Shown one piece after another: positions 1,015-61,676 of a stretch of 64,000 nt of DNA. The notes under the pieces were generated by a model. That model saw only the letters and a program-made list of their open reading frames with translations. It searched no databases and was not told the origin of the DNA. The stretch covers positions 128,910 to 192,909 of the forward strand of contig CAVUPP010000010.1 in NCBI GenBank assembly GCA_963743245.1, written 5' to 3'. This DNA is from Vicinamibacteria bacterium. GTDB taxonomy: Bacteria > Acidobacteriota > Vicinamibacteria > Vicinamibacterales > JAENWD01. A program made the position numbers and the translations under genes. Position 1 is the first letter of the stretch. The number at the start of each line of letters is the position of its first letter.

Positions 1015-1070
1015 GGCTTTGGGCTTTGGGCTCTAGGCCTTGGGAGTTGGAAGTTGGGAGTTGGGAGTTG
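1015..1070. repeat. Short-period low-complexity array (ctttggg x2, then agttgg[ga] units, 7-nt period)
   Basis: Read directly: ggctttgggctttgggctctaggccttgggagttggaagttgggagttgggagttg. It overlaps the last codons of the deoxyhypusine-synthase-like gene (tail ...STPNSQLPTPKA). Confidence 0.7.
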
Positions 1071-2223
1071 ATCCGCTCTCGCCGTCCTCGTCTTCCCCGT
1101 GAGGCCGCGGATTGTCGCGCGCCGCTTCGGCTTCGCGCTTGAGCGTCGCGACCAGCTCGTCGCGCCGATGCACCAGCTCACGTCGCGTGCGCCGATTCCA
1201 CTGACTGCCGACCGCGTACTCGGCGAAGAGCGGGAAGGCGATCGTGCTATCGCAGTAACAGACGACGGTGTCGGGGAGGACGCCTGGATTCACTTTGCCC
1301 CAGCTCACCGCCTCGGCCGGCGTCGCGCCCGACAATCCACCCCAGACGACCTGGTCGGTCGTCATCTGGATGAAGTAGTCGTTCCCTCCCTTGGGAATGT
1401 TGTAGACCTCCCACAGCGTCGGTTGCGCCTGCAGGTAGAAATTCTTCGGCGATCCTCCGCCGAGGATGATGCAGCCGTTCTGATGTCCAGACAGGACAAT
1501 CGCGCAGATCTCGTTGACGTCGCGATTGGGATCGATCATCAACCGGCTGCCCTGCATCAGCTCGTGATAGGCGACGTTCATGCCGATCGAGCTGTCGCCT
1601 GGCGACGACGTGTAGATGGGGACGCCGTACGTCGCGGCCGCGGCGACGACCGAATACTCCTCGCAGCCGGGATGCTGGTCGAGGAGATCGCGACCGAGGC
1701 GATAGTGGAGCTCGGAGGTCGCAATCGGACCATCGAGGCCCGAACGGCAGAGGAACTCCCGGATGTACGCGTCGGTTTCCATCAGCACGCTCGCCGGAAA
1801 CAGCACGTCGTAGATCCGGATCACCCCCTGCTCGTACAGCTCCACATCGTCGACGAACGGCGACCCGCGGCGGAGCGTGAAGTTCAGTGCGTAGTGCAGG
1901 TCGTGATAGAGATTGGCACCGGTGCTGATCAGAAAGTCGATCAGCCCGCGCTCCATCAGCTCGACAATACAGCCGCCAAGCCCCGCGGGCGTCAGCGCTC
2001 CGGCGACGGTGAGCCCGATCATGGTGTCGTGCTCGGGCCTGAGCATCTTGTCAGCGTAGATGCGGCAGGCCTCCGACAGGCGGGCCGCGTTGAACGCCTG
2101 GAACCCGTCGTTCAGCAGCCGGGTGATGTCGGAGCTGCCTTTGGGGCGATAGTAGGTGATGGGCCGGCCCGACAGATGGTCGGCGCGAGAATGACCTGGC
2201 GATCCAGGGGCGCGATGGGGCAC
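1033..2223 (-). CDS. Deoxyhypusine synthase family protein (DHS/homospermidine-synthase-like)
   Basis: Track ORF 1033..2496. The conserved DHS-like core reads GLTVAGALTPAGLGG...STGANLYHD...ILGGGSPKNF...MTTDQVVWGGLSGATPAEAVSWGK. The upstream 91 codons overlap the divergent gene at 2282. An in-frame GTG at 2221-2223 is the most plausible start, but the start is uncertain. Confidence 0.8.
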   Translation of the reverse strand: MPHRAPGSPGHSRADHLSGRPITYYRPKGSSDITRLLNDGFQAFNAARLSEACRIYADKMLRPEHDTMIGLTVAGALTPAGLGGCIVELMERGLIDFLISTGANLYHDLHYALNFTLRRGSPFVDDVELYEQGVIRIYDVLFPASVLMETDAYIREFLCRSGLDGPIATSELHYRLGRDLLDQHPGCEEYSVVAAAATYGVPIYTSSPGDSSIGMNVAYHELMQGSRLMIDPNRDVNEICAIVLSGHQNGCIILGGGSPKNFYLQAQPTLWEVYNIPKGGNDYFIQMTTDQVVWGGLSGATPAEAVSWGKVNPGVLPDTVVCYCDSTIAFPLFAEYAVGSQWNRRTRRELVHRRDELVATLKREAEAARDNPRPHGEDEDGESGSTPNSQLPTPKA

Positions 2224-2281
2224 GGGCCGTAGCTTACCATGCGGTCTTGACGCCGAATTCGACGCGGGTACGCAGCTGCGG

Positions 2282-2764
2282 ATGACGGCTGGCGCGTGCG
2301 AGGAACTCATGCAGCAGGACGACATGACCATCACCATCCTCATCATGCTGGGCGCGATCGTGCTGGCTCTAACCCTCACCTTCCTGCTGTTCCTGTTCTG
2401 GAAGAGCCGCCCATTCGCCGACGGTGACGTGTTCGTCGCCAGCAGGATGAGCCGCGGCAATCGCCTCTTCCCGACGCAGGTTCTGATCGCGCCCACAAGC
2501 GTCGTGCACTACACGCCGCAGTGGATCGGCAAATACGAACAGTCGATCCACATGGCGCACGTGGCGTCGGTGACCATCGACACCGGCCTCCTCTTCTCGG
2601 ATGTCCGGATCGAGACGACGGGCGGTTCGAACGCGATTCACTGCCGGGGACACCGGAAGGGCGACGCCGTCCGGATGAAGCAACTCATCGAGACCTACCA
2701 AACGGAGTACTATCGGACCTCCGGTCCAGCTGGCTCCGGGCCTGGTTCTGTCGCGCCAGCCTGA
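2282..2764 (+). CDS. Membrane-anchored bacterial PH-domain (bPH_2/YdbS-like) protein
   Basis: Track ORF. It has one N-terminal TM helix (ITILIMLGAIVLALTLTFLLFLF) followed by a PH-like segment (TQVLIAPTSVVHYTPQW...SVTIDTGLLFSDVRIETTGG). Alternative ATG starts lie at 2309 and 2324. Confidence 0.6.
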   Translation: MTAGACEELMQQDDMTITILIMLGAIVLALTLTFLLFLFWKSRPFADGDVFVASRMSRGNRLFPTQVLIAPTSVVHYTPQWIGKYEQSIHMAHVASVTIDTGLLFSDVRIETTGGSNAIHCRGHRKGDAVRMKQLIETYQTEYYRTSGPAGSGPGSVAPA

Positions 2765-2778
2765 AGCAGCCGATAAGG

Positions 2779-4131
2779 GTGGGCGTCGTGGACGAACTTC
2801 TCTACTCGGCCCGTCGTGCGTCGGCGTCTCTCCCGGCGAGACCCGAACCTTCTCCGGTTCCCGACGGCGAGACACGGTTCCGAACGCTCGTGCAGTCTCC
2901 GCTCCGGGCCGGAATCCTGCGCTTCCTGAGCGCCAGGCCCGACGAGGCCTTCGACGTCGAAACGCTGATGTCGACGTTCGGCCGACTGCGCCTGGACGTC
3001 GAGAACTGCGTCCGCGAGCTGAGCGACTTCGGCGTCGTCCGCCGGATGCCGGGGACGCCGTCGCGGTTCGGAGCGCAGCGTCCAGCCGAACCATCGGTCT
3101 CGGGCCTGCTCGACACCTTCCTGGAACGCCGCGCGACGATCAGTGCCGAGGATCAATCGCCATCGGTTCAGCAGTTCCGCGAGATGATCGGGCGCGACGA
3201 GAAGATGCTGATCGTCTTCGAATGGATTCGCACGGCGGCGAAGTCCGACATCGCCGTGCTGATCCTGGGGCCGACCGGCTCGGGCAAGGAAGTCGTCGCG
3301 CGGATGATTCACGAGTTGAGCCCGCGAAATACCGCCCGCTTCCAGGCCGTGAACTGCGCGGCCCTGCCGGACACACTCTTCGAGTCGGAGATTTTCGGGT
3401 ACGAGAAGGGCGCGTTCACCGGCGCGCACGATCGCAAGCCTGGCAAGCTCGAAATGGCGAACGAGGGCACGCTGTTCCTCGACGAGATCGGCGATCTGTC
3501 GATCGTCGCGCAGGCCAAGCTGTTGCGCGTGCTCGAAGACAAGCGGTTCGAGCGTCTCGGCGCGAACAAATCGATCCACGTGGATTTCCGGCTGATCTCC
3601 GCGACCAACCGCCCGTTGGATCTGTTCGTCCGGGACAGCCGCTTCCGCGAAGATCTCTACTATCGCGTCAACGCGTTTTCCATCCGGCTGCCCTCCCTCC
3701 GCGAGCGGCCGGCCGACATCCCCGTTCTTGCGCAACGCTTCCTCGCGCGCTACTGCGCGTCGAACGGCCTGCCACTCGACGCGAAGGTGATGTCGAAGGA
3801 GTCGGTGGACGCGCTGACGACATACCCCTGGCCCGGTAACATCCGCGAACTCGAGAGCACGGTCTCGCGCGCGGCGCTTTCATCGCCCGGCAGGACGATT
3901 CGCGCCTCGGACATCGAGTTCCTTCATGTTGGCGGTGTACCCTCAACCCAAGCGCCCGAGCGGCTCCCCACCCTGGCCGAAAGCGAGCGCGCCCACATCG
4001 TCCGCGTCCTGGAAGCGACGGCGTGGAACAAGAAGGAAGCGGCAAGGCTGCTCGACATCAGCCGCGGGACCCTCTACCGGAAGATCGTCGAGTACGGGCT
4101 GGAACCCGCGTCGCCCCGCAAAGCGTCCTGA
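2779..4131 (+). CDS. Sigma-54-dependent transcriptional activator (bEBP) with a non-receiver N-terminal domain
   Basis: Walker A GPTGSGKE, the sigma-54 contact motif GYEKGAFTGA, ELESTV, and a C-terminal Fis-type HTH (NKKEAARLLDISRGTLYRKI). The long track ORF starts inside the upstream gene. In-frame GTGs at 2779 and 2788 follow that gene's stop (2762-2764). The roughly 130-aa N-terminus shows no REC, GAF or PAS motifs that I recognise. Confidence 0.9.
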   Translation: MGVVDELLYSARRASASLPARPEPSPVPDGETRFRTLVQSPLRAGILRFLSARPDEAFDVETLMSTFGRLRLDVENCVRELSDFGVVRRMPGTPSRFGAQRPAEPSVSGLLDTFLERRATISAEDQSPSVQQFREMIGRDEKMLIVFEWIRTAAKSDIAVLILGPTGSGKEVVARMIHELSPRNTARFQAVNCAALPDTLFESEIFGYEKGAFTGAHDRKPGKLEMANEGTLFLDEIGDLSIVAQAKLLRVLEDKRFERLGANKSIHVDFRLISATNRPLDLFVRDSRFREDLYYRVNAFSIRLPSLRERPADIPVLAQRFLARYCASNGLPLDAKVMSKESVDALTTYPWPGNIRELESTVSRAALSSPGRTIRASDIEFLHVGGVPSTQAPERLPTLAESERAHIVRVLEATAWNKKEAARLLDISRGTLYRKIVEYGLEPASPRKAS

Positions 4132-4149
4132 TACGAGACACAGCCGATA

Positions 4150-4164
4150 CTCGAAATTTTCGAG
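4150..4164. promoter_or_regulatory. Perfect 7-1-7 palindrome CTCGAAA-T-TTTCGAG (candidate operator or hairpin)
   Basis: Read directly, 19 nt after the bEBP stop codon. Its function is unknown. Confidence 0.25.
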
Positions 4165-4225
4165 GAAAGCGGCCGATGTCAGGTCCGTTCGTGGTCAACC
4201 GTTTCATTTTTGAACACGTCGGATT

Positions 4226-4250
4226 CGCTCATTTGCGTGCGAAATGAGCG
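4226..4250. promoter_or_regulatory. Perfect 9-bp inverted repeat CGCTCATTT-gcgtgcg-AAATGAGCG (candidate bEBP upstream activating sequence)
   Basis: Read directly. It lies about 150-175 nt upstream of the -24/-12 element at 4401-4415, a plausible UAS distance. It could instead be a hairpin with no T-tract. Confidence 0.3.
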
Positions 4251-4400
4251 GTTCCGGCGCCCTGACTTCAACCCTGTGCTGATGCGGCACAGTCTTGGTA
4301 CCTGCCCCCGCGCATCGGGACCCGCAAGGCCCGTCAGTTCGTCCGTTCAACTTCTTGTCGGCCTGCCGGTTGCCGATTAGGTAACAGACCGGCTGTCCGG

Positions 4401-4416
4401 TGGCAGCCGAGTTGCC
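4401..4416 (+). promoter_or_regulatory. Sigma-54 (-24/-12) promoter candidate TGGCAG-ccgag-TTGCC
   Basis: It matches TGGCAC-N5-TTGC with one mismatch and obeys the GG-N10-GC spacing. It sits 57 nt upstream of the GTG at 4473 and directly downstream of a bEBP gene. Confidence 0.5.
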
Positions 4417-4472
4417 TTCTCTGCGACAGCTGCCCGTGTGCTTGCAGATTTCTGCGGGCGTCGGGTGGGTCC

Positions 4473-7031
4473 GTGTCGAAGCGCATGCATCCTGTTCCGT
4501 CCAACTACACCTCTCCGTCGAGCCGAGTGGCGGCCGCGGAGCCGGTCTCCTTTGGCGACATGTCGCCCCGTGGGCAGGGGTACGTCGGCGCCATCGTTCT
4601 GGCTGGGGCTGCGCTGTTGTCGCTGCGGCTGCCGCCGCTGACCGTATCGCATCCGCCACTGCTGGCGTCGATGCTCATGGCGGCGATTGCAGCGTCGGCG
4701 CTTCGTGTGGCGCTGCCGGGGTCTGGCGTGGGCGCGACCGTCTCTGCTTCGATGGCGGCGCTCTTTGGCTCGTTGCTCGTCATCGGACCTGACCAGACGT
4801 TGATCGTCGCGGCCGCGGCCGGCTTCACGCATTGCACGTTCGGCACCACGAGGCGCAATCCCGTCTACTGGACGGCGTTCAGCATGGCGGCGCTCGTGAC
4901 GGTGACCTTCGCTGCGGGCCGCGTGTACGCGGCTACCGGCGGCGTTCCGCTCGTGGACGCCTCGTCTCTGGACAGTCTCGAGCTGCCGATCATCGCAGCG
5001 GCGCTCATCTGGGTGCTCTTGACCGCGATCGTGCTGGGAGGCGGGCTCCTCGCAACTTCCGGCTGGCGCGTCATTGCCGGACGGCGAGACGATCTGTCGT
5101 GGTTCATGTTGAGCGGCTGTGTGGGCACTGCGGCGGGCGTGGTCGCAGCCGTGCTGCTCCGGGGCGCGACCTGGTGGCTCTGGCCGGTGGCGCTCGTGCC
5201 GCTGGTGTTGACGCACGTGGCCCAACGGCTCTCGGCGGAGCGGGTGGACGCCGAACGGCGCCGTACGCAGCAAATGGCCGACCTCCACTTCGCGTCGATC
5301 GAAGCGCTCGCCGTCGCGATCGACGCGAAAGACATGACGCCGACGACGCACGTGCGGCGCATTCAGGCGTACGCTGAGGAGCTGGCCCTGATGCTCGGCA
5401 TGTCGGATGGGGACGTGCAGGCGGTCCGCACTGCGGCGGTGCTCCACGACATCGGCAAGCTGGCTGTGCCCGAGCACATTCTGTCGAAGCCTGGTCCGCT
5501 GACCCCGGAGGAGTTCCAGAAGATTCGCACGCATCCGCAGATCGGCGCGGAGATTGTCGGCGCCGTCCCGTTCCCATATCCCGTGGCGCCGTTCATCCTG
5601 GCGCATCACGAGCGGTGGGACGGCCGCGGGTATCCGAGCGGGTTGAAGGGCGAGCAGATTCCGCTCGGCGCCAGAATCCTCTCGGTGGTCGATCAGTTCG
5701 ACGCGTTGACCACGGACCGGCCGTACAGGACGGCCTGCTCCACGGAGGATGCGTTCCAGTCGTTGCGGCGCGAAGCCGGCCGGTCGCTGGATCCGCACAT
5801 CGTCGATCTGTTCATCGACGCGTATCCGCGGCTGTCGGGCGAGGCCGAGCGGCTGGCCGAGGCGGCAGCGCGTCAGCTGTCGTTCGCGCAGCTCGGGCCG
5901 TTCGACACCGCGGCTCGGGACGGTTCGGCGAGGGTGTTTCGCGATATCGCGCTCGCGCACCGCGAGGTGTACGCGCTGTACGAGCTCGCGCAGGCGCTGG
6001 GCACGAGCCTGGGCATCGGCGACACGATGGCGCTCATCGCGTCAAAGCTGCACAACCTCGTGCCGTTTTCGTCGTGCGCGCTGTTCCTGCACAGTGCCGA
6101 GACCGACACGCTGCGCTGCAGGTTTGCGACGGGCATCGACGCCGAACTGCTGCAGCAACTCACGGTCGCCAACGGCGAAGGCCTCGTTGGATGGGCGGCA
6201 AAGAACGAGCGGGCGCTGGTCAACGCGAGGCCGGGCACCGATTTCGAAGCCGCAGGCGTCCGTGTACACACGTCACTTCAGTCTGCCCTGGTGATTCCGC
6301 TCGTCTTCAACACGGGGCTGGTCGGCGCTCTCGCCGTGTACGGGCAGGAAGCGGGCTGTTTCAACGACGATCACCGCCGGCTGCTCGCTCGTGTTGCCGA
6401 ACAGGCCGCCGGCGTCATCGCGAACTCCATCACGTACGAAGAGACCAAGCGGGACTCGCTGACGGATCCACTGACCGGTCTTCCCAATACGCGGTTCATG
6501 TTCGTGCACCTGACACGTGAGCTGGCGCGCGCGGAGCGCCTGAAGTCTGAAGTCTCGCTGCTCGTGATGGATCTCGACAGCTTCAAGGAGATCAACGACA
6601 GCTTCGGCCACACGGCCGGCGACCGGGCGCTGCGCGAGGTGGCGCGTGTGCTGCGGGCCGGCATCCGGCCCTACGACATCTGCGTGCGATATGCGGGTGA
6701 CGAGTTCGTCGTGCTGCTCTCGGGATGCGGACCCGAAGAAGCGCGACTCAAGATGCTGGAGCTACAGGCCGCAATCGACGCACTCATGATCGAGGTGCGT
6801 CCAGGGCGTCTCGTCCGTCTGGGCGCAAGCTTCGGCTGCGCGTCGTTCCCAACCGATGGCCACGGCTACGAGACCCTGCTCTCGATGGCTGACGAGCGGA
6901 TGTACGACGACAAGGCGCGGCGGAAGGGCCTGGGGGGCGATCAGTCCCTCTCCGCCCGTCCATCCGAATCGCACGGCGGCTCGCCGGTCTTTGCTAAGAT
7001 CGACCGTCCCGCTAATCCCCGCATGCACTGA
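4473..7031 (+). CDS. Membrane-bound HD-GYP / GAF / GGDEF c-di-GMP signalling protein
   Basis: Track ORF, 852 aa. It has an N-terminal multi-TM region, an HD-GYP domain (HDIGKLAVPE...HHERWDGRGYPSGL), a GAF-like middle and a GGDEF domain (RYAGDEFVVLL, GASFGCASFP). Confidence 0.9.
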   Translation: MSKRMHPVPSNYTSPSSRVAAAEPVSFGDMSPRGQGYVGAIVLAGAALLSLRLPPLTVSHPPLLASMLMAAIAASALRVALPGSGVGATVSASMAALFGSLLVIGPDQTLIVAAAAGFTHCTFGTTRRNPVYWTAFSMAALVTVTFAAGRVYAATGGVPLVDASSLDSLELPIIAAALIWVLLTAIVLGGGLLATSGWRVIAGRRDDLSWFMLSGCVGTAAGVVAAVLLRGATWWLWPVALVPLVLTHVAQRLSAERVDAERRRTQQMADLHFASIEALAVAIDAKDMTPTTHVRRIQAYAEELALMLGMSDGDVQAVRTAAVLHDIGKLAVPEHILSKPGPLTPEEFQKIRTHPQIGAEIVGAVPFPYPVAPFILAHHERWDGRGYPSGLKGEQIPLGARILSVVDQFDALTTDRPYRTACSTEDAFQSLRREAGRSLDPHIVDLFIDAYPRLSGEAERLAEAAARQLSFAQLGPFDTAARDGSARVFRDIALAHREVYALYELAQALGTSLGIGDTMALIASKLHNLVPFSSCALFLHSAETDTLRCRFATGIDAELLQQLTVANGEGLVGWAAKNERALVNARPGTDFEAAGVRVHTSLQSALVIPLVFNTGLVGALAVYGQEAGCFNDDHRRLLARVAEQAAGVIANSITYEETKRDSLTDPLTGLPNTRFMFVHLTRELARAERLKSEVSLLVMDLDSFKEINDSFGHTAGDRALREVARVLRAGIRPYDICVRYAGDEFVVLLSGCGPEEARLKMLELQAAIDALMIEVRPGRLVRLGASFGCASFPTDGHGYETLLSMADERMYDDKARRKGLGGDQSLSARPSESHGGSPVFAKIDRPANPRMH

Positions 7032-7083
7032 CGTCGGTCGTGGCCGGGGGCGTGACACTGCGGCGCAGTGCCGCCCACTCCCG

Positions 7084-7821
7084 ATGCTGCTGACCCTGAC
7101 CCTGCGCGAGGTCGAACGCGCGACCCCACGCGCTGCGATGGTACGGCTGGCGCTTGGCGGCCGGCGATTCGACTACGCCGCGGGGCAAGCCGTCCTGGTC
7201 GGACGCGCCGGCCAGGCAGACCGTCGTCCGTATTCCCTGGCGACGTCACCCTCGGAATGCCGTGAGCGCGACGAGCTGGAGCTGCTCGTCGGATTGGACA
7301 CGCTCGATCAACCCGGTCCGCACCTGGGTACGCTCACGACGGGAATGAGCATAGATGTCGAAGGACCGCTCGGCAGCTTCACGTTCCCCTCGGCAGCCAC
7401 CGAACATCGCTTTCTCTTTGTCGCCGGGGGGACCGGGATCGCCCCCCTTCGCGCGATGCTGCACGAGGCGCTGGCGCGGCCGGCGCCGACCCAGATTGCG
7501 CTGATCTACAGCGCGCGGACCCCGCAGGAGTTCGCGTACGGGCCCGAGCTGCGCGCACTCGCCGCGTCAGGCCGTCTGACGCTCTGGCAGACCGTCACTC
7601 GGGAAGCGGAAGCGCACTGGGACGGCGCCCAGGGACGCATCGCGCTCGGGCACCTGCGGTCGATGCTCCACGACGTCGAGACGCTGTGTTTCCTCTGCGG
7701 GCCGCACGCGTTGGTCCAAGCGATCTCGCCGCTGCTCGAGCAATTGGGAATCTCGCCGGATCGCGTGCGCGTCGAAGAATGGAAACCGAATTCGGAGTTC
7801 GGAGTGCGGAGTGCGGAGTAA
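7084..7821 (+). CDS. Ferredoxin-NADP reductase-type FAD/NAD(P)-binding oxidoreductase
   Basis: The ATG at 7084 lies within track ORF 6856..7821. RPYSLAS (FAD motif R-x-Y-S), FVAGGTGIAPLRAML (NAD(P) motif) and FLCGP are present. The last 11 codons (KPNSEFGVRSAE) are encoded by the downstream repeat. Confidence 0.75.
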   Translation: MLLTLTLREVERATPRAAMVRLALGGRRFDYAAGQAVLVGRAGQADRRPYSLATSPSECRERDELELLVGLDTLDQPGPHLGTLTTGMSIDVEGPLGSFTFPSAATEHRFLFVAGGTGIAPLRAMLHEALARPAPTQIALIYSARTPQEFAYGPELRALAASGRLTLWQTVTREAEAHWDGAQGRIALGHLRSMLHDVETLCFLCGPHALVQAISPLLEQLGISPDRVRVEEWKPNSEFGVRSAE

Positions 7822-7907
7822 AAGTCCGCATGCCAGTGTAATCAGCTCCGCACTCCGAATTTCAGCTCCGCAGTCCGCAGTCCGCATTCCGAACTCCGAA
7901 TTTCAGG
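7786..7907. repeat. Composite inverted array of 7-nt units (ggagtgc / ggagttc and their complements) between convergent genes
   Basis: cggagtgcggag (7800-7811 and 7807-7818) is the exact reverse complement of ctccgcactccg (7846-7857). attcggagttcgga pairs with tccgaactccgaat near 7889-7902. The array spans both stop codons (7819-7821 plus strand, 7903-7905 minus strand). Confidence 0.75.
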
Positions 7908-8677
7908 TTCCCACAATGTGGTATCCCGCGTCGACCATCAGGATCTCGCCGGTGATCGCCTTGCCCGTTGGACCGAGCAGGAACGACGCGGCGTCGGCGA
8001 CTTCGGACGTCTCCACGGTGCGTCTCAATCGGCGCTTTGTCGCGATACACCTGCAGGATGCTCGAGAATCCCCCGATGCCGGATGCCGCCAGCGTCTTGA
8101 TGGGCCCAGCCGAGATCGCGTTCACGCGGATGTTCTGCGGACCGAGCTCGCTCGCCAGATAGCGCACCGACGCTTCGAGCGCGGCCTTCGCGACGCCCAT
8201 CACGTTGTAGTTGGTGAAGACGCGCTGGCTGCCGAGGTACGTCAGCGTGAGGATGCTGCCGCCGCCACGTGTCGCCATCAGCGGCGCGGCGCCCCGCGAC
8301 AATGAGATGAGCGAGTACGCACTCACGTCGAGCGCGACACGGAAACCTTCTCGCGACGTCTGCAGGAACGGTAACGCGAGATCCTCCCGCAGCGCATACG
8401 CCACGCCGTGTACCAGATAGTCCAGGCCGCCGAATTCCCGGCCCACGGCCTCGAAGAGCGCGCCAACCTGCTCGTCGTTCGTGACGTCGCAGGGCAGAAT
8501 GAGCGGGCGATCGAGGTCCGCCGCCAGCTCGCGCACGTTCTCTTCGAGCCGCTCGCCCTGATAGGTCACCGCCAGCCGGACGCCGCGTGCGTTCAGCGCC
8601 TTCGCGATCGCCCAGGCAATCGATCGCTTGTTGGCAATCCCGACGATGACGCCGAAGGTTCCGGTCAGATCGCTCAT
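7903..8677 (-). pseudogene. fabI: Enoyl-[acyl-carrier-protein] reductase (NADH) FabI, reading frame broken by one extra nt near 8029
   Basis: Track ORF 7862..8677 is FabI-like up to ...VYRDKAP, then becomes nonsense (IETHRGDVRSRRRR...). After skipping nt 8029, the next frame reads LRRTVETSEVADAASFLLGPTGKAITGEILMVDAGYHIVGT with a stop at 7903-7905, a typical FabI C-terminus. Confidence 0.85.
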
Positions 8678-8700
8678 GTCTCAAGTCCGTTGCGCAAAGA

Positions 8701-8791
8701 CGTGTTCGTTTTCGTGTTCGTATTCGGGTCCTGGTCGTCTTTCGGATTCGTTCCTTGACGAACACGAATCCGAACACGAATACGACATACG
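8701..8791. repeat. Inverted 6-nt-period array (gtgttc/gttttc/gtattc ... gaacac/gaatcc/gaatac)
   Basis: Read directly, between the fabI start (8677) and the stop of the upstream gene (8857). Confidence 0.65.
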
Positions 8792-8856
8792 TCTGAGAGT
8801 CTCAGAACAACCGGATTTACGCGAGACAGGCCACGAGGCCGTCAAAGGTGGGCGCG

Positions 8857-9537
8857 TTACTTCGAGCGCTTCTTGCCACCACGCCGCCGCGACTGCCCCT
8901 GCCGTTCTCCCTGGGCCGGTCTGGCGCGGTTCCCCTGTGAGGCATGCCCGGTCGCGGCCATGCCGTTCCCCCGCCGTCCCTTGAAATTGAACGAATTGCC
9001 CATGTCGGAGGGACCGCCCGGCATCCCGCCGCCACGCCGGCCGTGGCGGAAGCGCCCGGGCTTGGCGGCCGCCCGAATCGTGAATTCGGGTATGGGCCGC
9101 TGTTCCTTCGGCTGTCCTTCGTGCCGCGGCAGCGTGGCACGAATGAGCTGCCGATGGACCGGTCCCTCGGGCTCCTCGCCCGCCGAAGGCGCGGCGTCGT
9201 CCGAGCCATCCGCCGGCGCCGCTGCCACCGCGACGGGTTCGTCGCCGGGGGGCGCAGAATCTGGCGGAACCGGCGTCGGGGGCGCGGGTGCGACGGGCCG
9301 ACGCGGAGCGCCGCCGCTCAGGACCTCCTGGAACAAGCCGCCGGAGCCTTCCTTCTTCTTTCGCTGTGGCGGAATCTTGGCCTGCTTGTACTCGTGTTCC
9401 GCTTCACACGTGGAGCACCGGGTCTGTTTGATTTCCTGCTCGATCATTGCCACGACGACGTGATTGGTTATGCGTCGTTCACGGGGGCAATAGTCGTCGA
9501 GTATGTCACCAAGCCGAGGCTGGCGCTGTTGCATCAA
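8857..9537 (-). CDS. Hypothetical protein, N-terminal Cys-containing module plus Pro/Ala-rich linker and Arg/Gly-rich tail
   Basis: Track ORF, 226 aa. The ordered N-terminus (LGDILDDYCPRERRITNHVVVAMIEQEIKQTRCSTCEAEHEYK) is followed by low complexity. No family was recognised. Confidence 0.5.
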   Translation of the reverse strand: MMQQRQPRLGDILDDYCPRERRITNHVVVAMIEQEIKQTRCSTCEAEHEYKQAKIPPQRKKKEGSGGLFQEVLSGGAPRRPVAPAPPTPVPPDSAPPGDEPVAVAAAPADGSDDAAPSAGEEPEGPVHRQLIRATLPRHEGQPKEQRPIPEFTIRAAAKPGRFRHGRRGGGMPGGPSDMGNSFNFKGRRGNGMAATGHASQGNRARPAQGERQGQSRRRGGKKRSK

Positions 9538-9631
9538 CCCTCCCGAAGGGGTGCGATCGAGGTACGCGGGATTGGGCGCAGGTCGGAAAGTCTAGCAGAG
9601 CTACGCAGTTGGAGCAACAAACCTCCGGCGA

Positions 9632-11023
9632 TCAGCGGTTGCGCACACGCTCATCGGCCACGAACCGCCCGAGCTCTTGCAAGGCCGCCGCCACGGCGTC
9701 CGGATGGGTGGATTGCGGCGTCCGGCGCGCCGCCACCGAGGCCGTCGCGGTCACGCGGTCGATGACGTCCGCCTGAAACAGGTCGCTGTAGCGCTGCCAT
9801 TCCACCAGTGTCAGAGATTCGAAGTCCCGGCCCTCGTCGAGCAGCCGGCGGGTCATGAGTCCGACCAATTCGTGCGCCCGCCGGAACGGCAGGCCCCGCG
9901 ATACCAGGTAATCCGCAACATCCGTTGCAAGGAGCAGGCCTGCCGCGGCCGGAGTCGTCCGGTCTGCATCGATGCGCAAGCCTCGGACGACGACGGCGAC
10001 TGACTCGAGGCAGCCGGTCAATGTCGCATCCGCGTCGAAGACCGCTTCCTTGTCCTCCTGCAGATCCTTGTTGTACCCGCTGGGCAGCCCCTTCATCGTC
10101 GCGAGGAATCCCGCGAGCCGGCCTATCGTGCGACCCGTCTTCCCGCGCACGAGCTCGAGCGGGTCCGGATTCTTCTTCTGCGGCATCATGCTGCTGCCGG
10201 TGGACGCTTCGTCGGACAACTCGAAGAAGCCGTGTTCCTCGCCGCTGAAGATGATGATGTCTTCGGCAAATCGGCTCAGGTGGACCATCGACAGCGTGCA
10301 GGCGTGCAGGAAGGCGGAGGCGAAGTCGCGATCGGCCGATGCGTCGATGCTGTTCGTCACCACCCGCGAAAATCCGAGCGCCGACGCCAGGGCGGCCGTG
10401 TCGATGGCGTAGTTGGTGCCCGCAACCGCACCCGATCCGAGCGGAAGCGCGTCGGCTTCCGCCGCAGCCTCTCCCAGTCTGGCGTGGTCGCGACGCAGCG
10501 CGGCAGCGTGCGCGAGAAGGAAATGCGCCACCAGCACGGGCTGTGCGCGCCGCAGGTGCGTATACGCCGGCATCAACGTTGTGCCCGCTTTGCCGGCGAG
10601 CGTGAAAAGGGCCTCGAGGACGTCGAGCACCTGGCGCTGGAGCGCGACAATCCGGCGGCGCAGGTAGAGGCGCAGGTCCAGGGAAACCTGTTCGTTCCTC
10701 GAGCGTCCGGTGTGGAGCCGCCGTCCGGGATCGCCGATGCGTTCGACGAGCTGCCGTTCTACGAAGGAATGCACGTCCTCGTCTGGACCCGCGACCCACG
10801 CCGGATCGGCCGTGCCGCGCTCCAGGATTTCGGTCAGCGCGCCGGTGATGGCGCGCGCATCCTCAGGCGACAGGACCCGCGCAGTGAGCAGCGCGTCGGC
10901 CCACGCCAGACTCCCACGCACATCGTCCTCGAACAGGCGACGGTCGAATGGGAACGAGGCACCAAACTCGAAAACCGCGGCGTCGGGCGCCGTGTCGAAC
11001 CGGCCAGACCACAGCGTAGACAT
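9632..11023 (-). CDS. argH: Argininosuccinate lyase
   Basis: Track ORF, 463 aa. MSTLWSGRF, the lyase signature GSSMMPQKKNPD and full-length collinearity with ArgH. Confidence 0.95.
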   Translation of the reverse strand: MSTLWSGRFDTAPDAAVFEFGASFPFDRRLFEDDVRGSLAWADALLTARVLSPEDARAITGALTEILERGTADPAWVAGPDEDVHSFVERQLVERIGDPGRRLHTGRSRNEQVSLDLRLYLRRRIVALQRQVLDVLEALFTLAGKAGTTLMPAYTHLRRAQPVLVAHFLLAHAAALRRDHARLGEAAAEADALPLGSGAVAGTNYAIDTAALASALGFSRVVTNSIDASADRDFASAFLHACTLSMVHLSRFAEDIIIFSGEEHGFFELSDEASTGSSMMPQKKNPDPLELVRGKTGRTIGRLAGFLATMKGLPSGYNKDLQEDKEAVFDADATLTGCLESVAVVVRGLRIDADRTTPAAAGLLLATDVADYLVSRGLPFRRAHELVGLMTRRLLDEGRDFESLTLVEWQRYSDLFQADVIDRVTATASVAARRTPQSTHPDAVAAALQELGRFVADERVRNR

Positions 11024-11025
11024 GT

Positions 11026-12255
11026 TCAGACTTTCGCGGGCGGAACGGCCGGCGCGTCGGCGTGATCCTGCTTCGCCGCGCGTGCGGCGATCTCGACGGG
11101 GCCGCCCAGCATCCGCACGAAGCCTGCCGCTGCCGTCCGGTCGAACTGGTCGCCGCCTGCGTGCGTGGCCAGCGCGGCCTCATATTGCGCAAACGGAGAC
11201 GTGCGTCCGACGACGCGGACGTCGCCGTGGAACAGCTTCACGCGAACAGTACCAGTGACACGTTGCTGGACGCGCGCGACGAAAGCGTCGAGCGCATCCC
11301 GCGTGGGCGTGAACCACCGGCCGTCGTACACCAGGTCGGCGTACGCGTTGGCGACGACGTCGGACAGTCTCGCGAGATCGCGGCCCGTGACGAAGCGCTC
11401 GAGATCTCGGTGCGCCGCATGCAGCACCGTAGCCGCCGGCGCTTCGTAGATCTCACGGGTCTTGATCCCGACAATTCGGTTCTCGACCATGTCGATCCGC
11501 CCGACGCCATGGTCGCCAGCGATCGTCGTCAGCGCGTCCACGAGCTCGACGAGCGGCATCGTGACCCCGTTGACCGAGACGGGAACGCCCTGCGCGAATC
11601 CCACCTCGACGTAGGCGGGTTCACCGGCGCACGCGGCGGGCTCGCGGGTCAGCGCGAAGATCTCGGCCGGCGCTTCCTGCCAGGGATCGTCGAGCACACC
11701 GCACTGAACCGACCGGCCCCAGAGATTGGTGTCGATGCTGTACACAGGATCGGTTGCACCGGTCATGGCGATGCCGCGGGCGCGCGCGAAGGCAAGTTCC
11801 TCGGCGCGGTTCATTCCCCAATCACGAGCCGGTGCGAGTACCGTCAGCGCGGGATCGAGCGCCCGGATCGACAGCTCGAGTCGCACCTGGTTATTGCCCT
11901 TTGCGGTCCCGCCGTGCGCGACCGTGGATGCGCCTTCCATCCTCGCGATTTCCACGAGGCGCCGGGCGATGAGCGGGCGTGCCAGCGCCGACGCGAGCGG
12001 ATAGTGCCCCTCGTAGAGCGCGCCAGCCTGCAGCGCCGGCAGGACGTACTCTCGCGCGAACTCGTCCTGGCAATCAAGCACATGGCAGCGAGCGGCTCCC
12101 GCCCCACGCGCACGCGCCCGCACGTGTTCGAGCTCTTTGCCCTGACCAAGGTCGAGCGTGACCGTCACGACCTCCGCGCCCAGATGCTCCACGAGCCAGG
12201 GGATGGCAACGGACGTATCGAGGCCGCCGGAATACGCGAGAACGATGCGAAGCAT
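11026..12255 (-). CDS. argG: Argininosuccinate synthase
   Basis: Track ORF, 409 aa. AYSGGLDTS (the N-type ATP-PPase motif), GATGKGNDQ-like AHGGTAKGNNQVR and DTNLWGRS. It ends 2 nt before the argH start. Confidence 0.95.
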   Translation of the reverse strand: MLRIVLAYSGGLDTSVAIPWLVEHLGAEVVTVTLDLGQGKELEHVRARARGAGAARCHVLDCQDEFAREYVLPALQAGALYEGHYPLASALARPLIARRLVEIARMEGASTVAHGGTAKGNNQVRLELSIRALDPALTVLAPARDWGMNRAEELAFARARGIAMTGATDPVYSIDTNLWGRSVQCGVLDDPWQEAPAEIFALTREPAACAGEPAYVEVGFAQGVPVSVNGVTMPLVELVDALTTIAGDHGVGRIDMVENRIVGIKTREIYEAPAATVLHAAHRDLERFVTGRDLARLSDVVANAYADLVYDGRWFTPTRDALDAFVARVQQRVTGTVRVKLFHGDVRVVGRTSPFAQYEAALATHAGGDQFDRTAAAGFVRMLGGPVEIAARAAKQDHADAPAVPPAKV

Positions 12256-12256
12256 T

Positions 12257-12346
12257 TTCAGGTTACAGACTTCAGGCTACAGACTTCAGACTTCAGGCTA
12301 CAGGCTACAGGCCAGCTACGAACTACGAACTACCAACTACCAACTA
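12257..12346. repeat. 7-nt-period array (cagactt x2, caggcta x2, ctacgaa x2, ctaccaa x2)
   Basis: Read directly, between the argR stop (12350) and the argG start (12255). Confidence 0.7.
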
Positions 12347-12349
12347 GAT

Positions 12350-12802
12350 TCATCTCCCAATGATGTCGCCGACGCGATCGGCGAACGCGACGGCCCGCCG
12401 GGCATCGCGGAGTATCACGAGGATGGTGTCGTCTCCAGCGATCGTGCCCACCACATCCGGAAGCAAGGCCCGGTCGATGGCAATAGCGGTCGGATTTGCC
12501 TGCGCCGGCGGTGTCTTGAGGACCACGAACTGCTGCACCCGGTCCACCTGGGTCACTGAGTCCGCAATCGCCCGCGTCATCGCCCCTGGGGCGCCGGACG
12601 GCGTGACGACCGCGCCAGTCGCGCGCTGGTACGCCCCGTCAGCAGCGCGTTTGACGAGCCCGAGCTCCTTGATATCCCGCGAAATCGTGGCCTGCGTGGC
12701 ATCGAGCCCGGCCGCATGGAGCCCTTTCCGGAGCTGTTCCTGGTTCCGAATGGGCTCGCGGTCCAGGAGCTGAAGAATGATGGCTTGTCGTCGTGCCTTC
12801 AT
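12350..12802 (-). CDS. argR: Arginine repressor
   Basis: Track ORF, 150 aa. The N-terminal winged helix (RQAIILQLLDREPIRNQEQLRKGLHAAGLDATQATISRDIKELGLVK) and the C-terminal GTIAGDDTILV motif are typical of ArgR/AhrC. Confidence 0.9.
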   Translation of the reverse strand: MKARRQAIILQLLDREPIRNQEQLRKGLHAAGLDATQATISRDIKELGLVKRAADGAYQRATGAVVTPSGAPGAMTRAIADSVTQVDRVQQFVVLKTPPAQANPTAIAIDRALLPDVVGTIAGDDTILVILRDARRAVAFADRVGDIIGR

Positions 12803-12927
12803 GAATATTCACCGGGACGAAAGAGTATACACGAGTGGATTACCCGGATGCCACGCCCCTAACGGTCGCGCCACAAAATTTACTTGATCCACCGTACGGC
12901 AGGCCGTATACTTATCCGCTCCACTGG

Positions 12928-13941: not shown

Positions 13942-14768
13942 TGTCGCGGCACGGCTGGCGGATTCTGAAGGTCGGCGGCGAGTTGCTCGAAGACGAGGTC
14001 CGGCTCCGCGGCCTCGCGGCTGTCGTCGCACGTGTTTCCTCGCTGCTGCCGTTGACGGTGGTGCACGGCGGCGGCAGGGAGATCGATCGGGCGCTTGCAC
14101 GCGCCGGCATTGCGAAACACCAGGTGGACGGTCTGCGCGTCACCGATGCCGACACGCTGGACGTCGTCGTCAGCGTCCTCGCGGGCAGCGTGAACACCCG
14201 TTTCGTCGCAGCGATCAACGCGGCGGGCGGCAAGGCCGTCGGCCTCACGGGCGCCGATGCCGGGCTCGCGCTGGCGGAGCGCGCGGCGCCGCACGTGACG
14301 GTGGCCGGCGAGACGGTGGATTTGGGATTGGTGGGCGAACCGATCGGTCAACGGTGGCCGCGACTGCTCGTCGATCTCGGAGGCAACGGCTACGTGCCGG
14401 TCGTGGCCAGTATCGGCATGAGCCCGCAGGGCGGCTTGTTGAACGTGAACGCCGATACGCTCGCGGCGCATCTCGCGGGCCGGCTCGCCGTCGCCCGGCT
14501 GGTCATCGCGGGCGGCACGGCTGGCGTGCTCGACGAGGATGGCAAGACGATTCCCCGGCTCGATCGTGAAGCGGTGCAGGCGCTGATCCGGTCGGGTGTG
14601 GCCAATGCGGGGATGGTGGCGAAGCTGCGCGCCTGCGAGCAAGCGCTGACGCACGGCGCGGCAGAGGTCGTGCTCATCGACGGCCGTGATCCGATGGCCG
14701 TGGAAGCCATGCTCATCGCGGCGCCGGGCGAACTGCCGGCGGTGCCGACAACGCGAATGGTGGCCTGA
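13941..14768 (+). CDS. argB: Acetylglutamate kinase
   Basis: In-frame ATG at 13941 (GTG at 13938), overlapping the argC stop (TGATG). ILKVGGELL, VVHGGG, NVNADT and MVAKLRAC are ArgB-like. Confidence 0.9.
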   Translation: MSRHGWRILKVGGELLEDEVRLRGLAAVVARVSSLLPLTVVHGGGREIDRALARAGIAKHQVDGLRVTDADTLDVVVSVLAGSVNTRFVAAINAAGGKAVGLTGADAGLALAERAAPHVTVAGETVDLGLVGEPIGQRWPRLLVDLGGNGYVPVVASIGMSPQGGLLNVNADTLAAHLAGRLAVARLVIAGGTAGVLDEDGKTIPRLDREAVQALIRSGVANAGMVAKLRACEQALTHGAAEVVLIDGRDPMAVEAMLIAAPGELPAVPTTRMVA

Positions 14769-14769
14769 C

Positions 14770-15993: not shown

Positions 15994-15998
15994 CTGAC

Positions 15999-18830: not shown

Positions 18831-18833
18831 GTG

Positions 18834-59053: not shown

Positions 59054-59128
59054 TGGTACCGGTACGGGGATTCGAACCCCGGTCCCGTGGCTGAGAACCA
59101 CGTGTCCTGACCCCTAGACGATACCGGC
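59054..59128 (-). tRNA. tRNA-Glu (anticodon CUC)
   Basis: Hand-folded. The acceptor is GCCGGTA/TACCGGT (G1-U72) and the D arm is GTCT-AGGGGTC-AGGAC. The anticodon arm is CGTGG-TTCTCAG-CCACG (CTC) and the T arm is CGGGG-TTCGAAT-CCCCG. A73 and an encoded CCA follow. The architecture is collinear with E. coli tRNA-Glu. Confidence 0.92.
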
Positions 59129-59263
59129 ACGTATCAGGAATCTTCGATCTTACCCAGCCCCCAGGACCTCGTCAACCTGCGCTCCGCGGTCGCCTTGGCG
59201 CACCGCACACGCGCACCGCGCAGCCCGCACCTCTACAGGATTGACAGGTATGATGGTGGACCG

Positions 59264-60629
59264 ATGCGTTACCTGCTCGCGCTCGTCGTGATCCTCGTCC
59301 TCGCTCTCGGCGGCTTCTGGGTCTACGCCGGCCGCGGCGGCGCTCCTGTCATCACCATCGACAAGCCCCAGACCCTCGTCGGCCAGGCGGGCACACTCGA
59401 CGTCGTGATCACGACGCCAGGCGGCAAGCTGAGTGAGTTGAACGCCACGTTGGAGCAGAGCGGCCAGTCGGTTTCGCTCTTTTCGCTCGCGCAGCCGGGT
59501 GGCGCCGACGCTGAAGCAGGAAGGCGCGGAAGCCGTACGGCTGACGCGTGGCATCGGCCGCGCCGACGTTCCACAACTGAAGAGCGGCGACGCACGGATC
59601 ACCATCACCGCCGCGCGCACGGGGCCGTTTGGCCTGCGCCGGCAGGTCGGCGCCGCCACCCGGGCGTTCCAGGTTCGCCTCGAGCCGCCCCGCGTCGCCG
59701 TGATCTCGACCCACCACTTCGTGAATCTTGGCGGCGCCGAGGCGGTCGTCTATCGCGCGACGCCGGCGGACGTGATGTCGGGTGTCAAGGTCGGCGAAGA
59801 CGAGTATCCGGGCTATCCGCTCAGCGGCGCGGGCGTCGCCGCCGATCCCTCGCTCAAGATCGCGTTCTTCGCCCTCCTCTTCGACCAGGATCTGAACACG
59901 CCGTTCACGGTGTTCGCGCGTGACGAGGCCGGCAACGGCGCGTCGACTCCACTCGACGCGAAGGTGTTCACCAAGAACTTCCGCCGCAGCCGGATCGAAG
60001 TGCCCCAGGCGTTCCTGCAGCGCGTGGTCCCCGCTATCCTCCAGAACACGCAGGGCTTTACCGCGTCGAATCCCTCGGATCTCCTGCAATCGTTCCTCGA
60101 GATCAACCGGGATCTACGTCAGAAGAACGCCCAGCAGATCGCGGCGCTGGCGAAGTCCACGTCGAAGGACATCCTCTGGCAGGGCGCGTTCCTGCAGCTC
60201 GGCAACTCGCAGGTCGAGTCGATGTTCGCGGACCATCGCACCTATTTCTACGAGAACAAGGAAATCGACCAGCAGGTGCACCTCGGGTTCGACCTGGCCG
60301 TCACGAGCGCCGTGCCCGTCGTGGCCGCCAACAAGGGCCGCGTCGTGAACGCGGACTTCCTGGGGATTTACGGGAATTGCGTCATCCTCGACCACGGAAT
60401 GGGCGTTCAATCGCTCTACGCGCACCTCTCGTCGATTGACGTCAAGGTCGGCGATACCGTAGAGAAAGGCCAGACGCTCGGCCGGAGCGGCATGACCGGT
60501 CTCGCCGGCGGCGATCACCTGCACTTCACCATGCTCGTGAACGGCCATCCGGTCAACGCGGTCGAGTGGTGGGACGCGCACTGGATCGAAGACCGCGTGA
60601 TGCGTAAGATTCGCGAAGCCAAGCAGTAG
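59264..60629 (+). pseudogene. M23-family (LytM-type) metalloendopeptidase, frame broken near 59498
   Basis: The ATG at 59264 gives a signal/anchor (MRYLLALVVILVLALGGFWVYA) and runs up to ...SLFSLAQP. The +1 frame (track 59499..60629) continues VAPTLKQEG... to the M23 motifs HLGFDLA, VILDHGMGVQSLYAHLS and GGDHLHF. Confidence 0.85.
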
Positions 60630-60650
60630 CTCGGAGTGCGGAGTTAGGAC

Positions 60651-61601
60651 GTGGCAGTGCCTGTGTCGGGCTATTCGTCATACATCAATCGGCCGTCGTC
60701 TTTGCCGGCGCAGGTCCCGTCTGGCCATGTGCCATCGCCGGCGGCACGGACGCGCGCGCTCGCGGACTTCGTCACGCTGACCAAGCCGCGCGTCAATCTG
60801 CTCGTGGTGATGACGACGGGGATTGGGTTCTATCTCGGGGCGACCGGCCTCGACCCGTGGCGGGTCTTCCACGCCTTGGTGGGGACCGGCCTCGTGGCGT
60901 CGGGCGCCGCCGCGTTCAATCAGATCTACGAGCGCGATATCGATCGCCTGATGCGGCGCACGCAATCCCGTCCGCTGCCATCAGGGCGGCTCGACGTGGG
61001 CGAAGCGCGCTGGTTTGCGGCGGCATTGGCGCTGGCCGGGCTCGTCGAGCTCGGACTTGGCACGACCTGGCTCGCCGCCGCGGTGGCGGCGGCCACGATC
61101 GTGAGCTACGCGCTTGTCTACACGCCGCTCAAGACGCGCACGTCCCTCGCCACGGTGGTCGGCGCCGTTCCCGGAGCCCTGCCTCCGCTGATCGGCTGGG
61201 CCGCTGCGACCGGCACGCTTCCCATCCAAGCCTGGTCGCTCTTTGCCATCGTCTTTTTCTGGCAGATGCCGCACGTGCTGGCAGTGTCGTGGATGTACCG
61301 CGAAGACTACGAGCGGGGCGGCATCCGGGTGCTTCCCGTCGTCGAGCCGGACGGAGGCAGCACGGCGCGCCAGATCGTGAGTTACGCCGCAGCGCTGATT
61401 CCGGTCAGCCTGCTGCCAACGGCGACGGGGCTCGCGGGCGATGTCTATCTCGTGGCGGCCGTCGCTCTTGGGCTGGCACTTCTCGGGTTGAGCCTCGCTT
61501 TCGCGCGTGAGCGGAAGCGTGAGCGGGCGCGCCGGCTGTTCTACGCATCGCTGGTCTATCTGCCCGTGCTCTGGGTGGTGCTCATCGGAAATCGGAACTG
61601 A
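60651..61601 (+). CDS. ctaB: Protoheme IX farnesyltransferase (heme O synthase)
   Basis: Track ORF, 316 aa (GTG start). LTKPRVNLLV, NQIYERDIDRLMRRTQSRPLPSG and FFWQMPH are UbiA-family CtaB/CyoE motifs. Confidence 0.9.
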   Translation: MAVPVSGYSSYINRPSSLPAQVPSGHVPSPAARTRALADFVTLTKPRVNLLVVMTTGIGFYLGATGLDPWRVFHALVGTGLVASGAAAFNQIYERDIDRLMRRTQSRPLPSGRLDVGEARWFAAALALAGLVELGLGTTWLAAAVAAATIVSYALVYTPLKTRTSLATVVGAVPGALPPLIGWAAATGTLPIQAWSLFAIVFFWQMPHVLAVSWMYREDYERGGIRVLPVVEPDGGSTARQIVSYAAALIPVSLLPTATGLAGDVYLVAAVALGLALLGLSLAFARERKRERARRLFYASLVYLPVLWVVLIGNRN

Positions 61602-61603
61602 AT

Positions 61604-61676
61604 CGGTCTTCTGTCTTCAGCCTGCGGTCTGCGGTTCTGCGGGTCCGACGAATACGAACACGAACTCGACTACGAC
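61604..61676. repeat. Short-period array (gtcttc/gtctgcg units, then acgaa[tc]acgaac units)
   Basis: Read directly, between the ctaB stop (61601) and the DUF420 gene start. Confidence 0.65.

Follow-up and report, generated by a model that had tools for sequence, protein, structure and literature searches.

Tandem arrays of 6- to 8-nt units lie in intergenic spacers along a 64,000-nt stretch of the genome of a Vicinamibacteria bacterium (hereafter the window; C10:128910-192909 of a 6.9-Mb, 65.5% GC assembly in 25 contigs), and they are shown here to belong with the Xanthomonas and Nostoc heptamer repeats, and with the paired sites known from Geobacter metallireducens, as one kind of element. 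An earlier sequence-only reading of this DNA had taken them for an undescribed class, but the same architecture had already been reported (Aklujkar et al., 2009, PMC2700814; Rehm et al., 2015, PMC4692102). We propose that the arrays may be genome-wide modular sites and satellites of cassettes that carry a PF05635 gene, with the PF05635 protein as their partner; judged from sequence, this seems to us quite possible, if not yet probable. A more doubtful proposal is that intergenic heptamer repeats may be what PF05635 four-helix-bundle proteins (kin of the DGR protein Avd and the rRNA-IVS protein S23p) recognise as their cognate sites, in a protein–repeat symbiosis like that of RAYT and REPIN.

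Genome-wide, 1,386 non-redundant arrays of period 6-8 were found, occupying 46.7 kb or 0.68% of the genome. Among Tandem Repeats Finder (TRF) rows of at least 3.5 copies, 753 had period 7, 291 period 6, 155 period 8 and 67 period 9. Genes were called with a codon-usage log-odds caller (5,604 genes, 82% coding; stops exact, starts approximate), and against these calls the density of period-7 arrays was 616 per Mb in non-coding DNA but 21 per Mb within genes (29-fold enrichment), so that the lack of an intergenic excess, which would have refuted the sequence-only reading, was not seen. The shared unit vocabulary that this reading had described extends to the whole genome. In the window itself, TRF returned 20 period-7 rows of at least three copies compared with 0.1 in 20 composition-preserving shuffles. 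The statement that most intergenic spacers carry arrays was too broad, as they are present in 12 of the 37 window spacers of at least 30 nt (crude gene calls), only two of the 12 lying beyond 44 kb, and in 805 of 4,714 spacers (17%) genome-wide. Among spacers of 40-100 nt, an array was present in 76 of 207 convergent (37%), 106 of 622 tandem (17%) and 2 of 103 divergent cases (2%), array frequency tracking the count of gene 3' ends per spacer. The first array of a tandem spacer begins a median of 11 nt past the stop codon, 10% of arrays overlap a stop codon, and the median distance to the next start is 33 nt, start calls being approximate. Divergent spacers hold 92 of 767 arrays, and in tandem spacers orientation relative to the flanking genes is neutral (241 sense and 231 antisense, ES and SE respectively).

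The basic module consists of ~4-4.5 copies (~30 nt) of a 7-nt unit, less often of a 6- or 8-nt unit. The commonest copy number is 4-4.5 and the median array length 30 nt, whereas the copy number of period-9 arrays falls monotonically instead. Dozens of unit families are present in this one genome, and modules are found alone, concatenated in a fixed order or head-to-head around a variable loop. Where modules adjoin, every frequent ordered pair has no swapped case (ATTCGT then AACACG, for example, 16:0), and hairpin polarity is fixed per family: the G-rich arm comes first in GGTAGTT (14:0) and CGTGTT (10:0), and GGGAGTT scores 0:6. The TGACGA family has a variant unit, TGCAGA, which 38 arrays contain and which stands second in 35 of them, and 22 arrays have the unit order D-V-D-D (V being the variant). 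Some families thus have a fixed or semi-fixed core of ~28 nt, the TGACGA family among them, contrary to the earlier view that a fixed core is lacking. Because syntax and polarity are fixed, the arrays are defined elements rather than noise; to call them low-complexity arrays undersells modular elements with a fixed syntax. As 555 of 845 period-7 arrays are built of units without a G3/C3 run and have the same four-unit mode, the four-unit preference cannot in general be a G-quadruplex effect.

An inverted partner within 150 nt (at least 16/21 matches) was found for 33% of arrays compared with 3.8% in the control, and 110 inverted pairs were called, with loops of 6-55 nt. Paired arrays fold into imperfect stems of 25-35 bp without a U tract; perfect stems are rare (5/1,300), and no loop sequence shared within a hairpin family was found. 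In the window, six of 11 arrays form strong hairpins (-31 to -65 kcal/mol, z -4.9 to -9.3), in keeping with the sequence-only remark that the arrays are often inverted arms able to fold; two fold weakly and three are unstructured composites. A function as intrinsic terminators was rejected, since a T run of at least four within 15 nt was present at just 5 of 220 hairpin flanks compared with 1.3% of control 15-mers, in line with the sequence-only view that the arrays are not simply terminators. Canonical terminator-like sites number 9 in window positions 1-20000 and 9.5 in shuffles, and the organism seems to rely little on intrinsic terminators of the classic type. Other candidates were also set aside. 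An apparent transcription-strand bias of the hairpins (42:6) is a strand-symmetric property of inverted repeats and really reflects the family-specific head-to-head polarity; a sense-strand RNA motif was rejected, there being no per-family orientation bias relative to flanking genes; and same-family inverted pairs at 150-2,500 nt are not a gene-bracketing device in general, as there were 52 of these compared with 58 direct pairs and mostly ordinary genes are bracketed. No Rfam family matches over the arrays, and their contiguous units of 6-8 nt, unlike CRISPR repeats of 23-50 nt that alternate with unique spacers of about the same length, agree with the earlier conclusion that they are not CRISPR.

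The proposed link to PF05635 comes from gene neighbourhoods and from co-occurrence. Nine genes of the genome match PF05635 (Avd/S23p-like four-helix bundle), none of them inside the window, and five of the nine lie between inverted arrays at a distance of up to ~220 nt, the unit family differing in each case (GGGCTTT, AGTCGAAG, AAGGGGT, CGGAGTT/TCCGCAC and CAACTCC/GGGAGTT). The most abundant heptamers of the genome are among these families. The cassette arms have ~10 units in four of the five cassettes here and ~10-27 units overall, compared with 4.4 in typical arrays, and in all five cases cassette polarity is that of the ORF (open reading frame)-less hairpins of the same family, including the single C-first family. 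Same-family inverted arrays bracket fewer than 1% of ordinary genes. In relatives of the same order, ~19 of 29 PF05635 loci stand between complementary arrays (period 7, 8 or 9), some with ACTGAAA/CAGTTTT arms, and in a tree of the PF05635 proteins period-8 arms are limited to one clade and related units occur on sister proteins. There was no rRNA match in the five cassette loci, which thus do not lie inside 23S rRNA helix 45, and a single-protein scan of viral contigs for PF05635 gave no match. For comparison, 35 further genomes from the order and phylum were sampled, at 17-100 kb each: 11 PF05635-free genomes had 4 arrays in 696 kb (0.6 per 100 kb), mostly of GC-only units, and 24 PF05635-positive genomes had 167 in 1,599 kb (10.4 per 100 kb). 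Both groups are spread through many families, intermixed, and are similar in GC content and genome size.

A further pointer comes from Xanthomonas campestris. The PF05635 profile matches PDB entry 2GSC, which is XCC0516 of this species (E 7.6e-34), and entries 2GSC and 2RLD each hold five chains. In the supplementary table of Rehm et al. (PMC4692102), repeat #15, a 28-nt (GGGAATC)x4 array, lies 6 nt from XCC0517 and overlaps the annotated start of XCC0516, although a PF05635 link is unmentioned in that paper. Since ~6% of Xcc genes are repeat-associated in the same table and this is a single case, the coincidence is suggestive only. Within the collection of papers that we searched, none joins PF05635 or S23p with tandem repeats, and a four-helix-bundle gene is unnamed in the text and supplements of the Geobacter paper and in the supplements of the Xanthomonas paper (PMC2700814; PMC4692102).

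We propose that the module may be the recognition site of an oligomeric nucleic-acid-binding protein, for which PF05635 is the candidate, the arrays being satellites of PF05635 cassettes as REPINs are of RAYTs. The main effect on the host would be RNA structure at gene ends, for processing or 3'-end protection, and not termination. On the more doubtful proposal of a symbiosis, a pentameric PF05635 protein would read ~4-5 tandem units of 7-8 nt, which would give a four-unit preference without G-quadruplexes. Each PF05635 paralog would have its own unit family, with its gene inside a long hairpin of its own repeats. Short modules without an ORF would be planted and kept up throughout the genome, and the activity involved may be non-enzymatic or of another kind. 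Such a PF05635–repeat system would be present in Acidobacteriota and Xanthomonas, and probably in cyanobacteria and Geobacter.

Several observations weigh against a PF05635 partnership. About two-thirds of arrays have no inverted partner, and the neutral orientation of solo arrays relative to genes (the 241 and 231 given above) argues against a sense-strand-specific RNA role. The abundant GGTAGTT, TGACGAW, CGGTCTR and hexamer families have no PF05635 cassette in this 96%-complete assembly. PF05635 gene count and array density are poorly correlated among positive genomes, one of which (G006) has 10 PF05635 genes and 4 arrays per 100 kb and another (G068) five genes and no arrays, and the co-occurrence comparison ignores kinship and rests on small samples. 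Ordinary genes are sometimes bracketed by same-family inverted arrays, and cassettes could be inserting into pre-existing hairpins. The converse idea, that the ORF-less hairpins are simple internal-deletion derivatives of cassettes, was tried and is unsupported because loops of the same family share no sequence.

The closest described relatives are the Xanthomonas GGGAATC and Nostoc GGGGA(C/T)T repeats, which are head-to-tail heptamers, of a class whose units span 5-11 nt, with a preference for four units, are 89-93% intergenic, under-represented between divergent ORFs and without strand preference, lie ~28 nt from the upstream ORF with some overlapping stop codons, include 70-75 convergent (head-to-head) pairs, and occupy the same place with variable content between relatives (PMC4692102). 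The period, intergenic excess, scarcity between divergent ORFs, neutral orientation, four-unit preference, stop-proximal position, pairing and same-place variation were all found here. Those genomes are each described with a single G-tract unit, and G-quadruplex formation was put forward to account for their four-unit bias, whereas the present arrays are not in general built of G tracts, dozens of families coexist and modules are concatenated in fixed order. Geobacter metallireducens has 49 Gmet_H4 elements of four tandem GGGACCG units and three Gmet_I classes (1-3) of paired sites, each of 3-5 tandem 7-9-mers on opposite strands at variable distance, one pair lying between proB and proA of an amino-acid operon; these were interpreted as sites of unidentified global regulators (IHF/HU) (PMC2700814). 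Paired sites of 3-5 units in several classes are likewise found here, and the proB–proA position resembles that of the argR–argG array described below, but some Geobacter elements lie within genes, no slippage or comparative data are given there, and by eye the abundant units here are unlike Geobacter GTTGCTYN, TCTCCGTSY, MTYCTGA and GGGACCG. Further related elements are the STRR of cyanobacteria and the TAACTGA repeats of Beggiatoaceae, likewise tandem heptamers between genes, which are plentiful in some lineages and missing from their close kin; TAACTGA repeats stand mainly directly upstream of starts and are almost always direct, with one indirect case (PMC4679880). The arrays here differ in standing mainly after stops, with one-third of them paired. 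For a PF05635-family ORF in a selfish element the parallel is the intervening sequence of the Coxiella burnetii 23S rRNA, which encodes S23p and has ends that pair into a stem (Warrier et al., 2016, PMC4990558). The cassettes here are outside rRNA, their stems are long tandem arrays and hundreds of ORF-less arrays stand alongside; a gene between pairable inverted repeats is nevertheless what was found at the five bracketed loci of this genome and at ~19 of 29 loci in relatives.

REPINs reportedly form short dispersed families at gene 3' ends, as hairpin-forming inverted doublets with less conserved loops, and their cognate RAYT gene is said to be flanked by its own repeats, whose presence tracks the gene across genomes (as described by Bertels and Rainey in 2011). 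The arrays share the 3'-end placement, the inverted doublets, the flanked protein gene and a presence that tracks that gene. They differ in that the candidate partner is a four-helix-bundle protein and not an HUH transposase, and in that the arms are tandem heptamers and not imperfect palindromes with a 20-40-nt palindromic core.

Between near-identical strains copy number differs by whole units (7 nt and 28 nt at 12257-12346). In a sister species, by which we mean a genome of the same genus (G001) with genes 82-87% identical, arrays are present at 8 of 8 alignable orthologous array-bearing spacers with differing content; most keep the unit family with a different copy number, and two have another unit family. 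Array-free spacers align at ~85-90% between the two species. Whole modules are shown to be exchanged between species while the place is kept, and the change in copy number that the sequence-only reading proposed to look for in relatives is borne out. No presence/absence polymorphism was found from which insertion boundaries could be read. Many soil and rhizosphere metagenomes contain sequence near-identical to that of the window and, as depth over array words reaches 269 in soil runs, these same unit arrays occur widely in metagenomes from soil.

One explanation for these data is that the arrays are neutral, microsatellite-like by-products of slippage, tolerated in the least constrained DNA (3' ends and intercistronic gaps) with no partner protein, PF05635 cassettes being mobile genes that merely landed in or beside hairpins. 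Mrazek's proposal of slippage for heptamers is quoted by MacGregor (2015), who summarises the polymerase-slippage idea (PMC4679880). Whole-unit indels between near-identical strains, the fast turnover of content between sister species, the lack of conservation of repeat-encoded protein tails and the absence of strand bias relative to genes all fit, yet we regard slippage as unlikely, though far from negligible: it predicts neither a mode at 4-4.5 units in place of monotonic decay, nor fixed module order and hairpin polarity, nor a conserved position of the variant unit in dispersed copies, and it leaves unexplained why cassette arms have ~10-27 units, why arm period follows protein clades and why arrays are nearly absent from 11 relatives that lack PF05635 but are alike in GC content and genome size. 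Another possibility is that the arrays are host-selected RNA elements independent of PF05635, acting as RNase III sites, 3'-exonuclease barriers or U-less terminators that punctuate operons, with the unstructured C/A-rich composites serving as spacers or leaders. Six of 11 window arrays fold far better than shuffles, arrays stand right after stops and between same-pathway genes (argR–argG and after argF), place is conserved where sequence is not, the hairpin at 18745 is kept though both arms changed unit family, and, as shuffles contain terminator-like sites just as often, there would be a use for some other 3'-end device. However, two-thirds of arrays are not hairpins, perfect stems are so rare, the 31283 hairpin is lost in the sister species, 92 of 767 arrays lie in divergent spacers, and neither the 7-nt period nor the four-unit mode is explained, which makes this explanation improbable to us.

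Aklujkar et al. proposed double-stranded DNA sites for nucleoid or global regulators such as IHF/HU in Geobacter, and orientation neutrality, paired sites at variable spacing (as in PMC2700814) and the presence of several classes in one genome would suit this here as well. An IHF/HU-like gene (C3:235372-235749, minus strand) is itself bracketed by inverted GGTGCGG / CACTCCG arrays (C3:235270-235823). Sites of regulators would normally be expected at promoters and not at 3' ends, though, arrays overlap coding ends, and the unit vocabulary turns over between sister species extremely fast, which is unexpected of a conserved regulator site, so that we give this idea little credence. Hardly credible, and largely refuted, is a repetitive extragenic palindromic (REP)/REPIN or miniature inverted-repeat transposable element (MITE) family mobilised by a transposase. 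Dispersed families, a semi-fixed ~28-nt core and inverted doublets with variable loops are REPIN-like; but none of the three Y1_Tnp (PF01797) genes of the genome has an array within 400 nt, the arms are not self-palindromic, internal sequence is not conserved as it should be in a MITE, and Rfam has no matching family. The earlier exclusion of REP/RAYT elements therefore stands, and no catalogued REP or MITE family with a defined transposase accounts for the arrays.

The individual arrays of the window illustrate these properties. Period 6-8 tandem arrays were recovered by TRF at all 11 places listed by the sequence-only reading, with the unit vocabulary that it gave, in convergent, tandem and at least one divergent spacer (38078-38203), and the three spacers that it named as array-free (4132-4472, 27264-27496 and 63478-63812) gave no TRF row. 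It missed (GCGCACC)5 at 59198-59231 (TRF), 70 nt upstream of the minus-strand tRNA gene 59057-59128 (Rfam match, 58 bits). Its stop codons inside arrays were also correct, both repeat-encoded protein tails being exact (...KPNSEFGVRSAE from 7786-7821 and ...STPNSQLPTPKA from 1033-1070 on the minus strand). A common variant of the GGGCTTT family, AGGCTTT (GGCTTTAGGC), reads TAG on one strand and TAA on the other, and such stops could limit read-through translation into arrays from either side.

Six arrays form strong hairpins. That at 7786-7907 (TRF, fold) consists of head-to-head CGGAGTK / TCCGMAN units in a convergent spacer (-65.2 kcal/mol, z -9.3), with the stop codon of an oxidoreductase gene (7084-7821) inside its 5' arm; the sister-species ortholog (L111) stops at EWK* just before the array, and as the 12-residue tail is absent there it is a recent by-product and not a conserved feature. 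The array at 8701-8791 (TRF), in a tandem minus-strand spacer, has a hexamer (CGTGTT/CGTTTT) arm followed by an (ACGAAC/ACGAAT) arm (-40.3 kcal/mol, z -4.95) and is a member of the CGTGTT family, with 27-nt arms and the 10:0 polarity. GTAGTTC / CTACGAA arms at 18745-18830 (TRF; -57.2 kcal/mol, z -8.7) fill the whole gap from the stop of the ornithine carbamoyltransferase gene (argF) to the next start, and in the sister species both arms of the retained hairpin belong to another unit family (CGGTCTT / GCAGACC). At 21091-21200 (TRF, fold), GGAGTGC / ATTCCGA arms (-50.9 kcal/mol, z -5.45) are accompanied by a short (CCGTAGA)2.4 run, and the array ends 1 nt before the ATG of a DUF2339 gene (Pfam); the type of this spacer is uncertain, as the minus-strand ORF upstream matches no family. 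The hairpin at 31283-31358 (TRF), with CGGTCTA/CAGTCTT and GCAGACC arms (-45.3 kcal/mol, z -6.5), lies between the stop of an M14-peptidase-like gene (1177 aa) and an OsmC-like start; in the sister species (CGGTCTT)8 is followed by a non-complementary CGGACTA array and the hairpin is lost. The sixth, 43797-43862 (TRF), has TGCGGAR and CCGAAYT arms between a WD40 gene stop and a CHASE2-cyclase gene start (-30.6 kcal/mol, z -4.9). The sister-species contig ends exactly at 43789-43797, and metagenome (Logan) contigs end at the 12246-12315 arrays.

Two arrays fold weakly. In the convergent spacer at 35955-36048 (TRF; flanks by Pfam; z -2.5), two non-complementary arrays stand side by side, one of GGTCTRC type after a 2-keto-3-deoxy-6-phosphogluconate (KDPG)-aldolase stop and (TCGACTTT)6 abutting the stop of a HEAT-repeat gene; the sister species has two octamer units and not six. 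The divergent spacer 38078-38203 (TRF; z -3.3) carries a composite of (CGGTCTG)~5 and (GCACTCC/GCATTCC)~11 upstream of the start of a proline-racemase-like gene (38059), a start that is sound because the Pfam match spans residues 12-332 of 334; the sister species has related arrays and an extra GGGCTTC array.

The remaining three are unstructured composites. That at 1015-1070 (TRF, sequence) consists of two direct modules, (GGCTTTG)~4 then (GGAGTTG)~4, does not form a hairpin (z +0.75), overlaps the final 12 codons of the deoxyhypusine-synthase-like gene at 1033-2223 (minus strand) and leaves 10 nt to the start of the next gene (1004). The ordered composite (GGCTTTG)4(GGAGTTG)4 recurs many times genome-wide and the swapped order was never found; the sister species has (GGCTACA)6 at this place. 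At 12257-12346 (TRF), (CAGGCTA/CAGACTT)~7.7 and (CGAACTA/CCAACTA)~5 occupy the entire gap from the argR stop to the argG start (flanks by Pfam) and fold worse than all 200 shuffles (z +2.1). Three alleles of this array are known: beside that of the window, a soil-metagenome contig lacks exactly one 7-nt unit and is otherwise identical over 12287-12448, and a Joint Genome Institute (JGI) contig lacks exactly 28 nt (four units) with 8 mismatches in ~2,760 nt (99.7% identical). The sister species has five additional CTACGAA units, and at five loci in relatives (L095, L096, L099, L107 and L109) differing arrays, with units GCCCAAA, CGGACAA, ATTGATG, GGCCTCG and GTGCCGG, end ~35-70 nt upstream of an argG paralog (argininosuccinate synthase). 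The third composite, (CGGTCTK)~5 and (ACGAAC)~3.7 at 61604-61676 (TRF, Pfam; z +0.16), directly follows the stop of a UbiA-family gene. Of two minor traces, that at 46516-46556 is a decayed run of ~3 degenerate CGGTCTR-type units in a 42-nt spacer, seen in the sequence but below the TRF threshold; the other, seen in the sequence at 60630-60650, comprises two CGGAGTK units directly before a GTG start, the GGAG of which can be read just as well as a Shine-Dalgarno region. Two frame breaks were also noted among the neighbouring genes. An otherwise matching soil-metagenome contig is without one base at 8027, in a short-chain dehydrogenase/reductase (SDR)/enoyl-ACP-reductase-like gene whose Pfam match ends after residue 218, and the frame of the DUF2339 gene (21202-23707) is split at ~21911; most simply, both are assembly indel errors.

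To our knowledge, no other long simple repeat is as over-represented in many bacterial genomes as tandem heptamers are, and there has been no settled view of their role; nor do we know of an accepted explanation for the intergenic heptamers in the time since STRR were first reported from cyanobacteria. Proposals have included slippage bias, G-quadruplexes and regulator sites. The phenomenon itself is already described, and the value of the present case is that quadruplex formation is excluded as a general explanation and that there is a concrete candidate for a protein partner. In practical terms, the arrays interrupt short-read assemblies, give rise to protein tails that are not conserved and act as fast strain markers. 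The co-occurrence of arrays and PF05635 across 35 genomes, and the position of XCC0516, a protein of known structure, beside a (GGGAATC)4 repeat, make an old puzzle experimentally testable.

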